A stretch of 64,000 nt of DNA from Candidatus Amesbacteria bacterium GW2011_GWB1_47_19 (GCA_001002325.1 LCNZ01000006.1:110492-174491); one strand, 5' to 3'. Shown: positions 27,756-43,451, counted from the first letter of the stretch. Numbers and translations: made by a program. Notes: generated from the letters alone by a model not told the origin.

Positions 27756-29246
27756 GTAAGGAGAAGAAAGAGGTTGGGAGGTAGCGCTTTCCGCGCCCCC
27801 GCCTTGCCGGCAGGCAGGCGCCTCCGCAGAAAGCGCGTCAAATCCGCCTTTTTTGAAACTTGCGGACAGCCGCCGATCCTTTAAAAAGAAGTTCGAGCCG
27901 ACAGTTTTTGCCATGATAGATAAATCATGGCAACTATTTTTTGCGCGCGCGATTTTGTGCGCTGAAAGCGCACTATTTAACTCAGCGCCGTTTTGGGAAA
28001 CTTCCTTGATTTTGGAGTTGAGAAGCGATTTTGTTTCGATAAGTTCGTTCTTTTTCTTTTGATAATCTTCGGGGCTAACAATTTTGTCTAAATATCCCTC
28101 GAGCAAACGATCTGTTTTTTCCTCTGTTTCTTTTAGTTGCAGTTGATAAGTTGAAATAATACCGGACGATTTCCCTTTTTCGCTGTTTGCGTCTTTATCC
28201 GCCCACTCGAGAAACTTTTTGGCGGCGTGCGGCGGCAATGATGCTCGCAAAACAATCTCTTTTAGTTGTTTTTCAATTTCCCCTTTATCAATATATTTTT
28301 GCGAGCAATTACCCATTTTCTTGGAGCAGCGATAGTAAATATATTCAGCGGTTCTATTGGTTCGGTTATAATACTTGGTATGTTTTTCCGCCGTAATTGC
28401 GCCGCCGCATTCGCCGCACTTCACCAAACCGAGAAAATCAAATAAGTGTTTATTGTTTTTAACTTTTCTTGTTTTTAATTTCACTATATCTTGACATTTA
28501 TCAAAAAGTTTCTTTGAGATTAAAGGCGGGTGATTGCCTTCGTAAAGTTCGCCGCAAAATTTCATCACTCCGTAGTAAAACGGATCGGTCAAAATTCTTT
28601 TGACTTTATCCAAATGAAGTTCATGGCCGGACTTGTTGAAAATTTTGTTTTGGTTGAAAAATTTGCGGATATCAGCATATCCATAGCCGCCGGTAGCAAA
28701 AAGCTGAAAAGCTTTTTGCACATACTTGGCTCGTTTTTTATCAACCTCTATTTTCTTATTAATATTTATATAACCAAACTGAGCTTGATTTGGCCACTCA
28801 CCGCGGCGAAGTTTTTGACGATTGCCTCGCTTTACATTTTCGGAAAGATTATCCACATAATACTTTGATTGTCCAAACGCGATATTGAGCATAAATTTTC
28901 CTTGGGGGGTGTTTTCAAACCAGAATGAGGGAAATTTTAGATCAAGCAATTTTCCGGTATCTAATAAATAGATAATCTTTCCGCCGTCAACAGAGTTTCT
29001 GGCTAAACGGTCTGGATGCCATGATAAAATTCCATCAGCTTTTCCGTCCTCAATTTCTTTTAGGACTTCTGCAAATTTTTCTCTGCCTGGTTCTTTGGCG
29101 GTTTTACTCTCGGTAATAAAAGAAACGATCTTTAATCCTTCTTTTGCGGCGTGTTCTTCAAGTTCGGCAACTTGAGCCTCAATGGACAAAATTTGTCTGT
29201 CCGGTTCATCCGTAGATTTTCTGCAATACGCTATATATTTAATCAT
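27723..29246 (-). CDS. Large serine recombinase (resolvase domain, recombinase domain, zinc ribbon)
   Basis: N-terminal catalytic motif YCRKSTDEPDRQILSIEAQ, a recombinase domain and a CX2C...C zinc ribbon (KCGECGGAIT...YYRCS). The last ~50 codons (approx. 27723-27872) read through IR X' and into the tRNA, so the true C-terminus is probably shorter. Confidence 0.85.
   Translation of the reverse strand: MIKYIAYCRKSTDEPDRQILSIEAQVAELEEHAAKEGLKIVSFITESKTAKEPGREKFAEVLKEIEDGKADGILSWHPDRLARNSVDGGKIIYLLDTGKLLDLKFPSFWFENTPQGKFMLNIAFGQSKYYVDNLSENVKRGNRQKLRRGEWPNQAQFGYININKKIEVDKKRAKYVQKAFQLFATGGYGYADIRKFFNQNKIFNKSGHELHLDKVKRILTDPFYYGVMKFCGELYEGNHPPLISKKLFDKCQDIVKLKTRKVKNNKHLFDFLGLVKCGECGGAITAEKHTKYYNRTNRTAEYIYYRCSKKMGNCSQKYIDKGEIEKQLKEIVLRASLPPHAAKKFLEWADKDANSEKGKSSGIISTYQLQLKETEEKTDRLLEGYLDKIVSPEDYQKKKNELIETKSLLNSKIKEVSQNGAELNSALSAHKIARAKNSCHDLSIMAKTVGSNFFLKDRRLSASFKKGGFDALSAEAPACRQGGGAESATSQPLSSPYWLGDRDSNPN
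27749..27870. repeat. Inverted repeat X' (left copy, reverse complement of X)
   Basis: Its reverse complement matches 29349-29470 with a single mismatch over about 122 bp. It is GC-rich and begins with CCAGCCA, which also forms the tRNA-Gln 3' end. Confidence 0.85.
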
Positions 29247-29348
29247 GGTTGCTTTATCTCTTAAAAGTTCTTTAAACGAACGATAGTGAGCAGTCCCGAT
29301 TATTCATCGGGACAATTTTTGCGTTTTTTCTTCCTTCTTTTTACGGCG

Positions 29349-29470
29349 GCTGTCCGCAAGTTTCAAAAAAGGCGGATTTGACGCGCTTTCTGCGGAGGCG
29401 CCTGCCTGCCGGCAAGGCAGGGGCGCGGAAAGCGCTACCTCCCAACCTCTTTCTTCTCCTTACTGGCTGG
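29349..29470. repeat. Inverted repeat X (right copy)
   Basis: See the X' entry. The ORF 29378..29728 inside it is a spurious frame. Confidence 0.85.
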
Positions 29471-29563
29471 CGGTTTACGAAAAATGTCGAACTTCATTTG
29501 ATTAGCTCGGCCTTCGGCCTCGCTTGCTCCAGCGCGGCGCCCCCACCCGCCGCGCCTACGAAA
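29466..29563. repeat. Inverted repeat Y (left copy)
   Basis: It is a perfect reverse complement of 30829-30926 over about 98 bp. It overlaps X by the 5-bp GCTGG core. Confidence 0.85.
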
Positions 29564-29813
29564 CTGTCGGCTCGAACAAGACAAAATACAAGAGTATTTT
29601 GTCTCAAAGAAAAACGCAAAAATTTTAAAGAACTTTTTATAAATCTCAAATGGCCGCCCTGGTTGTACTCAGAAACCTTTCGGGATCTGTCCAAGACGGC
29701 CATTAAAAAGCCCGAAGGTTATTTCTGAGTACAAATACAATATACAAATTTTCTCAAAGAAAAACGATAGCGCCTACTCAAATTTCCTGAAACCTGTATA
29801 ATTAAGGTGAAAT

Positions 29814-30416
29814 ATGACAATAAAAGAACAATTACATAACGACCCAGAAATTCTAGACGACATCGACCTAGTTCGTTGGATTGCTGAAAATTTGCCGATA
29901 CGATTTATAGGTGATGAGGGACTAAAGCAGAAATGCACAGTGTTTAGCGAAGATGAGTTTGGAAGAGAAGAAATGATGGAACTAAGCGAGGTTCTTATTG
30001 ATACTCTTAAGAAATATCGAGCAAAAGCTGGTATGGGAAGAGGTCTAGCGGCCAATCAAATAGGTATTCCCAGACGAATGATTGCTGTTTGGTTAGGTGA
30101 TGAACCGGAAGTATTTGTTAACCCAGAAATTGATAGTACAGAAGGCAAGGGAAGTTATTGGGAATCTTGTATATCAGCAGGAACTTTACTAATCGGGGAA
30201 GTAATTCGTCCATGGAAAGGAAGGTTTTCATATCGTGATCTAAGTGGTGGAGTACACACAATCGAAGCAGACGAAAAACAAACAAGGCTTTTTCTCCATG
30301 AGATTGATCACTTGGATGGACATAATTGTTTGGAAGCATATACACCGGGTACTACAAAATTTGTCCGAGGAGGGAAAGAAGAAATTTTTAGTCACTCGTT
30401 CACCAGAACGAAATAA
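29814..30416 (+). CDS. def: Peptide deformylase with an N-terminal extension
   Basis: All three PDF motifs are present: GRGLAANQIG (motif I), WESCIS (EGCLS-type, motif II) and HEIDHLDG (HExxH, motif III). It has a TATAAT box and RBS upstream. Motif I sits about 30 aa later than in housekeeping PDFs. Confidence 0.85.
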   Translation: MTIKEQLHNDPEILDDIDLVRWIAENLPIRFIGDEGLKQKCTVFSEDEFGREEMMELSEVLIDTLKKYRAKAGMGRGLAANQIGIPRRMIAVWLGDEPEVFVNPEIDSTEGKGSYWESCISAGTLLIGEVIRPWKGRFSYRDLSGGVHTIEADEKQTRLFLHEIDHLDGHNCLEAYTPGTTKFVRGGKEEIFSHSFTRTK

Positions 30417-42052: not shown

Positions 42053-42108
42053 AGCCACTAGTGGCTAGCGGGAAAGTTTATTTGCCGACTGATACCCCAG
42101 CGTAAAGA

Positions 42109-42381
42109 CTACGTGTTTTTGGCAAAAAATTCATTGAATGGCTTCAGATATTTTTCGTCAACATGGGGAGGATAAATGTTCCTGAACAAAACCTGTACCT
42201 GAACTTCGCTCAGACCTTCCAGCAAATTTGTAAAAGCCTGAGGATGGGATAAAATATCCCCGTAATTTATTCTTGGAGTGATAGCTTTTACCAACTCCCA
42301 CACTCGACAATCGGATTCACAATTCGGATCACTGCATGGTTTTCCGGTTAAGGAGCAAGCTCGGGTTTCAGAAAAAGGCAT
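42109..42381 (-). CDS. Hypothetical Cys-rich small protein
   Basis: 90 aa with the N-terminal cluster CSLTGKPCSDPNCESDC. Confidence 0.3.
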   Translation of the reverse strand: MPFSETRACSLTGKPCSDPNCESDCRVWELVKAITPRINYGDILSHPQAFTNLLEGLSEVQVQVLFRNIYPPHVDEKYLKPFNEFFAKNT

Positions 42382-42427
42382 AAAGAAATTAGATGAATTG
42401 TAGTTCTTTCCGGCCGGGAGTCAACTG

Positions 42428-43348
42428 TTAGAGATAGTCTTTTTTCCAGAAGATGATCCAGAGGACGGCGGTAATACCCAGGGTAAGCAGGATGATAGCG
42501 AGAAAAGCGAGGGGATGATCGGACAGCGGCAGGGGCACATTCATACCGAAGAAACTGGCGATGGCGGTGGGGATGGTGAGAATCAGGGTAACGGCGGTGA
42601 GCAGTTTGACAGTGCGGTTTAAATTGTTGGAAATAATGGAAGTGTAGGCTTCACGGATATTGGTAATAGCCTTGATGTTTGACAGACATAGCTTTACCAG
42701 CTGATTGGTACCGATCTGTAAATCCTCCACCAGATCCTGATCCGCTTCAAATAATTGAAGATACTTACCGGATAGCAACTGGCCGAGGGTAATGGACAAG
42801 GGTTCCAGCGAAGTCAGAAAGTCATTGAAGACGGATTCAAAATTGATGAGCTGCATAATGTCCTGGTTGGAAATATTATTCATGTCCACGGTGTAGTTTC
42901 TGACTTTTTTCCTAATATCATTGACCATGTGCGAATAGTCGGAATTTATTTCCAGAAGAAGCTGGATAAAAAGCTTGGTCTTTTGGGTAGTGGAAATTTC
43001 CGACCGGGATTTTTTGATCCTTTCGGCAATATTCTGGTCATGCCCGGAAACCGTAATGAAATAATCGGGAGTCACCACAATCAGCAGGGGGGCGGTGTGG
43101 ATCTGGCCGGAAATATCCTGGGGGGTACGGATGAAGATATAGTCATTGCCGTCTTCGCGTTCGATACGGGAGACTTCGTAAGGATCCAGGGCATCTTTGA
43201 GGGTCTGAAAATCAAGTTTGAGTTCCGCGGCAATTTTTTCCAATTCGACCAGGTCGGGGTCGACGATATTTATCCAACAGCCGGGTTTGTAAGTATCTAA
43301 CAGCCTGAGTTCCGTACCTTTGAGGCTTTTGAAAAATATTTCCACCAT
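42428..43348 (-). CDS. corA: CorA-family Mg2+/Co2+ transporter
   Basis: Two C-terminal TM helices with the FFGMNV (GMN) signature. Confidence 0.85.
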   Translation of the reverse strand: MVEIFFKSLKGTELRLLDTYKPGCWINIVDPDLVELEKIAAELKLDFQTLKDALDPYEVSRIEREDGNDYIFIRTPQDISGQIHTAPLLIVVTPDYFITVSGHDQNIAERIKKSRSEISTTQKTKLFIQLLLEINSDYSHMVNDIRKKVRNYTVDMNNISNQDIMQLINFESVFNDFLTSLEPLSITLGQLLSGKYLQLFEADQDLVEDLQIGTNQLVKLCLSNIKAITNIREAYTSIISNNLNRTVKLLTAVTLILTIPTAIASFFGMNVPLPLSDHPLAFLAIILLTLGITAVLWIIFWKKDYL

Positions 43349-43451
43349 GAGTTCATTCTAACAATACCGGGGCGGTAGTAGAATATTAAAATTAATGCAG
43401 GAGACATAATGAACTTTATCTCCGAAGGCCTATAAGGTAAGATAGGGTGAT

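Follow-up and report, generated by a model that had tools for sequence, protein, structure and literature searches.

Small serine invertases of the Hin/Gin/Cin/Pin group are non-integrative proteins of ~190 aa with a C-terminal helix-turn-helix; their sites measure 26 bp and are assisted by an enhancer to which Fis binds. SCCmec elements use the serine recombinases CcrAB, target rlmH, and accumulate in layers, each set off by directly repeated copies of the integration site sequence; an inverted attP is absent from them. The yeast 2-micron plasmid replicates autonomously and carries the tyrosine recombinase system FLP/FRT. Large serine integrases of the phage type (A118/LI, Bxb1, phiC31) combine Resolvase, recombinase and zinc-ribbon domains and leave a tiny junction core with no long direct repeats. 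In serine integrases the motif read by the zinc-ribbon domain (ZD) is shifted by 5 bp between half-sites of attP and those of attB (PMC3783163, Rutherford et al.), and recombination of attL with attP is forbidden in the current model (PMC3783163). Tycheposons of Prochlorococcus tRNA islands are small cargo-carrying elements at tRNA genes in which tyrosine recombinases predominate (910 of 937); older elements are displaced inward by newer ones, and degraded integrases stay behind (10.1101/2020.12.28.424599). Here we compare these systems with a locus of Candidatus Amesbacteria bacterium GW2011_GWB1_47_19 (GCA_001002325.1, LCNZ01000006.1:110492-174491), which belongs to the Microgenomates within the Candidate Phyla Radiation (CPR). 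The stretch analysed, termed the window, is 64,000 nt long, and positions are counted from its first letter. A large serine recombinase (LSR) gene, LSR1, lies there against the 3' end of a tRNA-Gln(CTG) gene at the left edge of AT-rich DNA. This AT-rich stretch beside tRNA-Gln is foreign DNA, and the region is probably a composite of three compositional tiers. We hold the explanation as a whole, a three-tier composite with an integrated LSR element, with fairly good confidence.

Window proteins have identical copies in Candidatus Amesbacteria groundwater genomes (e.g., GCA_000998545.1 and GCA_001773795.1). The left flank contains core-like genes, including type IV pilus/type II secretion genes, KsgA, an S8-NHL protease and a peroxiredoxin, and TypA/BipA lies at 56.8 kb. 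Measured in 1-kb steps, GC content falls from ~0.50 to 0.33-0.43 across 28-38 kb. GC content and mean gene GC content at third codon positions (GC3) are distributed as follows.

1-27681: GC 0.498
27756-30926, recombinase element: GC 0.413; GC3 0.32
30927-37450, AT block: GC 0.347; GC3 0.33
37451-42427: GC 0.426; GC3 0.41
42428-54700: GC 0.451; GC3 0.48
54701-64000: GC 0.512

In the flanks (1-27.7 kb and 54.7-64 kb), gene GC3 averages 0.55. Mann-Whitney tests separate the AT block from core genes (p=1e-5) and place 37.5-42.4 kb below the core (p=0.0015) and above the AT block (p=0.007), while 37.5-42.4 kb and 42.4-54.6 kb are not distinguishable (p=0.087). The right edge of strong AT-richness is sharp and lies between convergent genes that end at 37404 and 37468 (GC step at 37405-37467). 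The original prediction, made from the sequence alone, held that DNA from tRNA-Gln to ~37.5 kb is AT-rich against flanks of ~50% GC, and it proposed sliding-window GC and codon usage as checks. The GC profile and gene GC3 bear it out: composition is not uniform, with GC of 0.35-0.41 and GC3 of 0.33 compared to 0.55 in the flanks. It also allowed for a possible milder continuation up to CorA at ~43.4 kb; a milder zone exists, but it does not stop at CorA and runs on as a patchy mosaic to ~54.7 kb. With a tRNA 3' end and an integrase gene at its junction and a composition that deviates from that of its host, the region has two marks of a tRNA-linked island. As a genomic island it is an ordinary find; its newest layer belongs to a compact, highly recurrent element family in CPR bacteria, whose mobile DNA is poorly known. 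This layer consists of the following features.

27682-27755, plus strand: tRNA-Gln(CTG) (ARAGORN; Rfam tRNA, 60 bits; junction alignment)
27746-27875, plus strand: arm A of inverted-repeat pair 1, 130 nt, 98% complementary (nhmmer profile of 69 arms, E=3.5e-23)
27723-29246, minus strand: LSR1, large serine recombinase, 507 aa (Pfam; PHROG 95 integrase, E=1.5e-77)
29344-29473, minus strand: arm A', inverted copy of A (repeat search, junction alignment, nhmmer)
29466-29560, minus strand: arm D of inverted-repeat pair 2, 95 nt, 99% (nhmmer, E=7e-25)
29814-30416, plus strand: peptide deformylase, cargo (Pfam Pep_deformylase, 8e-28)
30439-30780, plus strand: cupin, cargo (Pfam Cupin_2, 8e-9)
30832-30926, plus strand: arm D' (repeat search, junction alignment, nhmmer)

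The 507-aa LSR1 open reading frame (ORF), which overlaps the 3' end of tRNA-Gln(CTG), has the Resolvase (PF00239, 6e-22), Recombinase (PF07508, 4e-15) and Zn_ribbon_recom (PF13408, 8e-11) domains. These three domains and its length, within ~450-700 aa, identify it as a large serine recombinase. Six conspecific contigs carry a 515-aa allele with 24 nt more than the window at 27980; one older assembly lacks 46 nt at this position. Pair 1 (27746-27875/29344-29473) brackets the LSR gene and pair 2 (29466-29560/30832-30926) brackets the two-gene cargo (GC3 0.27-0.29), and the two pairs abut each other. Arm A, which consists of a P'-type half-site, a GC-rich hairpin and a T-run, reaches over both the 3' end of the tRNA and the final part of the LSR ORF. 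Arm D is a half-site of P type, and its GTTCGAC motif stands 22 nt away from the core. An Rfam scan of 27-44 kb returned nothing except the tRNA, and a promoter and terminator scan with folding of the arms gave counts at shuffle level.

Three junctions have a common core that corresponds to the tRNA end. Junction S1 joins the tRNA, CCAGCCA (its last bases) and arm A in an attL-like arrangement (B-O-P'). Junction S2 is inverted and joins arm D, CCGCCAGCCA and arm A', with its core at 29464-29470, as a complete attP-like site (P-O-P'). Junction S3 joins arm D', CCGCCAGC (30919-30926) and the flank in an attR-like arrangement (P-O-B') and forms the right end of the element. A distal direct repeat of the tRNA 3' end was not found; only the 8-nt core at S3 recurs. 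Because the inverted attP-like S2 lies between the recombinase and cargo modules, each module is bracketed by inverted repeats of ~100-130 nt. The element ends at 30926, so the intact recombinase accounts for just 3.2 kb of the AT-rich DNA. From the order of these half-sites, S1, S2 and S3 would represent attL, attP and attR, and LSR1 would have inserted the 3.2-kb element into the tRNA-Gln(CTG) 3' end by attP x attB recombination within the last tRNA bases. The element would thereby supply the terminal CA of the CCA end of the tRNA. An attL/inverted attP/attR layout does not follow from the current model for the directionality of serine integrases.

Several smaller matches lie near the arms. 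The best promoter-like match in the element (29649-29622, minus strand; TTGAGA-16-TAAAAT) lies just outside arm D, within the cargo module, and faces the LSR gene; if it is real, a flip of either module would disconnect it from that gene. Short inverted matches (17-23 nt, 89-100%) occur just beyond the arms at 27891-27907/29561-29577 and 27938-27956/30810-30828, and another species has a match of the same kind (locus L095, 7469-7491/11315-11337). On each inner edge of the cargo module, pieces of LSR 3' coding sequence are found again, one of them with GTTCGAG; this also holds in the species of L095.

Homologues of LSR1 are plentiful in Microgenomates, and we compared 83 loci, of which three were fetched by exact protein and 80 are metagenomic. 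Pair 1 is present in 48 of 51 loci with enough flank, and in 40 of these 48 the distal arm lies at a tRNA 3' end; pair 2 is present in 19 of 20 loci with >4 kb of room. Median arm length and identity are 105 nt and 96.7% for pair 1 and 101 nt and 99% for pair 2. The three-junction plan with a common 4-7-nt core equal to the tRNA end occurs in all 21 loci inspected as well as in the window. Seventeen tRNA species are targeted across related loci: the clade at 84-91% identity to LSR1 occurs at Gln-CTG or Gln-TTG and once at Trp, and more distant clades occur at Lys, Ile, Arg, Leu, Ser, Pro, Val and Glu tRNAs. Cargo modules span 0.84-3.5 kb, are mostly unique to their element, and carry genes in either orientation relative to the recombinase; they encode ABC and MFS transporters, a TrpD-like enzyme, a PEP-utiliser domain protein, VOC/cupin proteins and an RHH protein. 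Hosts of recombinases with 86-88% identity to LSR1 have a GC content of 0.36-0.42, which matches that of the element (0.41), unlike its own flanks (~0.50); this is consistent with import from lower-GC Microgenomates. Full-text literature searches of incomplete coverage returned no description of tRNA-targeting LSR elements with double inverted repeats in CPR bacteria. We consider it an even call whether LSR1-type elements form a previously undescribed class in these Microgenomates, namely 3-5-kb, T-loop-reading cassette carriers with an inverted attP and flippable modules.

One small protein recurs in cargo across recombinase clades. It is a 92-97-aa membrane protein with no Pfam match (MEKYLIYLLAGF...TDFIESLYKIK), occurs in L123, L139, L143, L149, L153 and L163, and is fused in L104.

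The range of tRNA targets may have a simple basis in site recognition. In all 22 elements examined, arm D has a GTTCGA-like motif 19-23 nt from the arm boundary; measured from there, the tRNA's T-loop GTTCGA is 14-18 nt away, which gives an offset of 4-5 nt. Phage-type serine integrases likewise have the P half-site motif ~5 bp farther out than the B half-site motif (PMC3783163), and this agreement supports identifying the P half-site with arm D and the B half-site with the tRNA. A shifted ZD motif together with a very short core, as seen here, is the signature of serine-integrase att sites. The LSR family appears, from alignment of these sites, to read the universal T-loop GTTCGA as its B-type ZD motif, which would explain how related recombinases target many different tRNAs. 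Use of the T-loop in this way would amount to a simple retargeting rule among tRNA genes, with relevance to integrase engineering.

The recombinase module is also polymorphic in orientation. The invertible segment spans 27876-29343, and both orientations occur in this species' population. Two independent conspecific contigs carry the flipped module: in one (L004, left junction), the peroxiredoxin gene, tRNA-Gln and arm A are joined to the 5' side of the LSR gene; in the other (L185, right junction), the LSR 3' end is joined via arm A' to arm D and the cargo, and the contig is 100% identical to the window over 29344-37214. Many contigs break within the arms. A flipped cargo module was not seen in this species, and flipping of that module would be expected from the symmetry of its inverted repeats. 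Because attL x attP recombination is forbidden for serine integrases, the flip may reflect host homologous recombination between arms or non-canonical activity of the enzyme. Possible roles for the inverted attP are an integrase expression switch, insulation by the hairpin-rich arms, or cassette exchange. If the flip does act as an expression switch or exchanges cargo cassettes, this would be an activity that is not expected of serine integrases.

Repeats can confuse assemblers, and LSR1 falls in a PHROG of phage integrases; assembly artefacts could thus account for the inverted repeats and the inversion, or the locus could be a prophage remnant. We find either barely credible. The same repeat architecture occurs in >60 independent contigs from different projects and assemblers, and the flipped contig L004 was assembled with k=141, which exceeds the arm length of 127-130 nt. 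A PHROG scan of ten island ORFs (LSR1, the deformylase, the cupin, an alpha/beta hydrolase, an LSR-derived fragment discussed below, and five without a family) returned only integrase/invertase, deformylase and esterase families, none of them structural, and no relative of LSR1 was found in 2.9 million viral contigs.

Comparison with described systems places the LSR1 element between several of them. LSR1 shares with the phage-type integrases its domain architecture, tiny core and outward-shifted P motif. It differs from them in its carrier, a 3-5-kb non-viral element; in its target, the extreme 3' end of a tRNA with the T-loop apparently serving as ZD motif; and in its integrated form, which keeps a full inverted attP-like site and homogenised arms of ~100-130 nt. 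No recombination directionality factor was identified in the LSR1 element. Hin-type systems resemble it in that inverted repeats enclose a DNA segment, the recombinase gene lies within that segment (Hin) or next to it, and both orientations coexist in a population. LSR1 is nevertheless not a small serine invertase, although inversion itself is observed: it is a 507-515-aa integrase-type protein with recombinase and zinc-ribbon domains, its arms are att halves of 95-130 nt, and its element has an arm that abuts a tRNA and two adjacent, apparently invertible modules. As in SCCmec, an LSR drives insertion at a conserved gene's 3' end, and tandem stacking (in the LSR1 family) and decayed remnants occur; unlike SCCmec, the LSR1 element targets a tRNA and holds an inverted attP. 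Its likeness to the 2-micron plasmid is that an S1 x S3 excision circle would hold two inverted sites and two flippable unique segments, but no replication genes were seen in the element. With tycheposons it has in common small size, cargo and tRNA targets; the double inverted-repeat architecture of LSR1 elements is not described for tycheposons in the available part of their report (10.1101/2020.12.28.424599).

The AT block adjoins the element at S3 and contains the following genes.

30927-31214, plus strand: 2H/CPDase-like ORF of half length, 95 aa against a 199-position profile (Pfam CPDase, 1.1e-6)
31475-32461, minus strand: GH10 xylanase, intact (Pfam Glyco_hydro_10, 2.2e-91)
32555-33082, minus strand: LSR-derived gene without catalytic domain, zinc ribbon and C-terminal part (Pfam, tblastn)
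33063-33575, minus strand: HAD-like hydrolase (Pfam Hydrolase, E=0.0026, under the Pfam cutoff; profile positions 1-168 of 191)
33526-34410 and 34407-35267, minus strand: two EamA/DMT transporters (Pfam EamA, 3e-22 and 6e-13)
35336-36202, plus strand: alpha/beta hydrolase (Pfam) with an in-frame TAA at 35363-35365
36212-37404, plus strand: two ORFs assigned to no family, one of 166 aa and a membrane-like one of 231 aa, with which the block ends

Four of these nine genes are damaged. The 2H/CPDase-like ORF begins right after S3, and its residues 34-90 match profile positions 130-198. The HAD gene abuts the LSR-derived fragment, lacks the last ~23 profile positions, and has probably lost motif IV; it stops exactly where homology to the recombinase begins (33063-33082), and the LSR-derived gene is 5'-truncated against it. 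This mutual truncation suggests a single deletion. In the alpha/beta hydrolase, translation from the ATG at 35336 meets the TAA at codon 10, identically in all seven conspecific contigs compared. The gene content foreseen in the original prediction is largely confirmed, including the GH10 xylanase, both DMT transporters and the interrupted alpha/beta hydrolase; the HAD hydrolase gene is there too, but as a weak match. The lengths at which the alpha/beta hydrolase is called in different assemblies (191, 232 and 278 aa) were considered as strain variation and rejected, because the DNA is identical and only the choice of start differs.

Every conspecific assembly carries the AT-rich region at 99.7-100% identity; the island thus predates the sampled strains. 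Such constancy would also be expected if the AT-rich region were native, vertically inherited and divergent in composition for functional reasons. That is very improbable given twelve consecutive genes with GC3 of 0.27-0.41 against 0.55 in the flanks, with sharp edges, an integrase and att-like junctions at the tRNA end, and the damaged genes of the block. Moreover, no AT-block or distal island gene recurs near related recombinases in 80+ loci. Under the composite explanation, the AT block (6.5 kb) would be an older foreign block that was beside the tRNA before the LSR element arrived and is now eroding.

The LSR-derived gene of the AT block had been taken for a second, decayed recombinase. 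An ORF at 32555-33010 on the minus strand indeed has Zn_ribbon_recom as its sole domain, as predicted, and tblastn extends the homology to 33082 (LSR residues 243-332). Describing it as clearly paralogous to the intact copy was an overstatement: the two are homologous, with 33% identity over 67 aa (E=2e-11). Among 5.8 billion proteins, 13 relatives of 179-303 aa were found (P0241-P0253), none of which has a resolvase catalytic domain. In four inspected contigs (L097-L100, representing two distinct contexts), the relatives are complete short genes with unrelated neighbours, 35-39% GC and no tRNA, and their DNA similarity to the window is confined to 32555-33076. Nonsynonymous divergence in this family is low (pN 0.11-0.13) compared to synonymous divergence (pS ~0.88, saturated), which indicates purifying selection. 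Judged by these alignments, the fragment does not look like an older layer's dead integrase but like a member of a conserved recombinase-derived family without catalytic activity, with additional truncation in the window, and it may at no time have worked as an integrase here. The family could conceivably also have arisen by separate recent truncations of an integrase that was once active. Members combine recombinase-domain and zinc-ribbon parts, and one, P0253, is fused to a ParB-like domain.

These results bear on the larger claim that two or more elements, each with its own serine recombinase, integrated serially at tRNA-Gln and that the fragment at 32555-33010 is a dead integrase. Some ingredients of that claim stand, namely foreign DNA, a tRNA 3' end, a serine integrase and damaged genes. 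The fragment lies on the same strand as LSR1 in AT-rich, decaying DNA; the LSR family includes displaced elements that adjoin a tRNA 3' fragment (L104, L102) and tandem elements (L118, L124); and stacking at tRNAs is documented for tycheposons (10.1101/2020.12.28.424599). On the other side, accretion by at least two integrase-bearing layers, each with its own att scar, is not what the window contains: there is one complete element and no second scar. A mismatch-tolerant search and blastn-short found no tRNA fragment of >=15 nt elsewhere in the window, and nhmmer profiles of 69 A arms and 32 D arms found no degenerate arm relics in it beyond the known copies, so no candidate older border has either mark. 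Partial tRNA copies mark the layers of tycheposons and are absent here. The low identity of the fragment to LSR1 and the absence of a catalytic domain from all 13 relatives mean that nothing shows that it integrated the AT block; the unrelated, tRNA-free contexts of its relatives and pN far below pS also count against the claim, as does the rule that attL is not normally reused as attB by a serine integrase. Serial integration at the tRNA is therefore partly supported, plausible in kind and not demonstrated here, and in its full form, with the fragment as a dead integrase, we regard it as doubtful. Synteny offers little help: homologues of the flanking peroxiredoxin are absent between 93% (a variant on a 1.4-kb contig) and 69% identity, and a scan of genome-collection contigs with this protein gave matches of <=65% identity, none with tRNA-Gln synteny.

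The layered arrangements in the family deserve description in their own right. In L104 (9500-13623) the intact tRNA-Gln lies 4 kb off, behind accessory genes (GNAT, alpha/beta hydrolase, racemase), and in L102 (~1680) a related LSR element adjoins a tRNA 3' fragment; both arrangements are evidence of elements displaced from their tRNA. L118 (1-4900) and L124 (1-4856) each have two complete LSR elements in tandem or at adjacent tRNAs, and the first recombinase module of L124 is apparently in flipped orientation.

The following genes lie beyond 37.45 kb, the first four in DNA of intermediate GC.

within 37468-42381, minus strand: 402-aa protein, intermediate GC (gene call)
38956-39975, plus strand: GH130 (E=1e-44)
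39978-42052, plus strand: GT4-(alpha/alpha)6 fusion, C-terminal part a weak match, split by a 110-nt deletion after 40759
within 37468-42381, minus strand: 90-aa ORF, intermediate GC (gene call)
42428-43348, minus strand: CorA, GC3 0.59, host-like

The GH130 enzyme and the GT4 fusion are present as anticipated. The disruption of GT4, offered as a sign of decay, is real in this assembly but particular to the strain or the assembly: three other conspecific assemblies have the gene intact (715 aa by L090 translation; called as 715-731 aa), and in one sister assembly 52 nt are deleted from the same left breakpoint. Two of the signs of decay are thus weaker than first read, this one and the fragment that belongs to a conserved family without a catalytic domain. 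Deletions of differing lengths occur at the same three spots (27980, 40759, and 30847-30879 in L001) in two older assemblies, and other assemblies are full length. The LSR and GT4 deletions may mark hotspots or artefacts of older assemblies, and so count for little as signs of old decay.

Composition shows no border at CorA; host-like GC3 (0.59) is also seen for the ORF at 45772-46836. The zone from 37.45 to 54.7 kb would be a mosaic accessory zone with a composition mildly below that of the core. A different origin for this zone would be a single large old island that extends from the tRNA to ~54.7 kb, with distal parts ameliorated toward host composition. GC3 at 42.4-54.6 kb (0.48) is below that of the core (0.55; p=0.004), and the zone is full of small accessory enzymes (three NUDIX, GNAT, SDR, nitroreductase and MsrB), as such an island would require. 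We nonetheless consider a single island quite unlikely, because composition changes abruptly at 37.45 kb instead of by degrees, GC3 is host-like in both CorA and the 45772-46836 ORF, and 54.7 kb has no integrase, repeats or scars.

Several observations weigh against the composite with an integrated LSR element. An empty attB site (tRNA-Gln ...CAGC followed by ATGAAGAATTT) and a circle junction are both absent from the ~24 conspecific contigs read per search, so that mobility in this species is deduced from cross-species comparison. Targets do not share a conserved right half of attB (B'). Foreign origin of the AT block rests on composition and gene decay, and all sampled strains carry the block. 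Inversion may have been carried out by host homologous recombination rather than by the LSR, and the deletions in the LSR, GT4 and arm D' may be assembly artefacts.

Several minor features lie outside the element and the AT block. The mosaic at 42428-54700 encodes, beside the enzymes named above, an aldose-epimerase-like protein and a secreted metalloprotease-like protein. The metalloprotease-like gene is flanked by a 48-nt direct repeat (88%; 48495-48542/49724-49771), and a NUDIX gene is flanked by a 31-nt palindromic repeat (90%; 54049-54079/54660-54690). A lone low-GC ORF (9615-10289, minus strand; GC 0.37, GC3 0.34) lies within the ~50% GC left flank.

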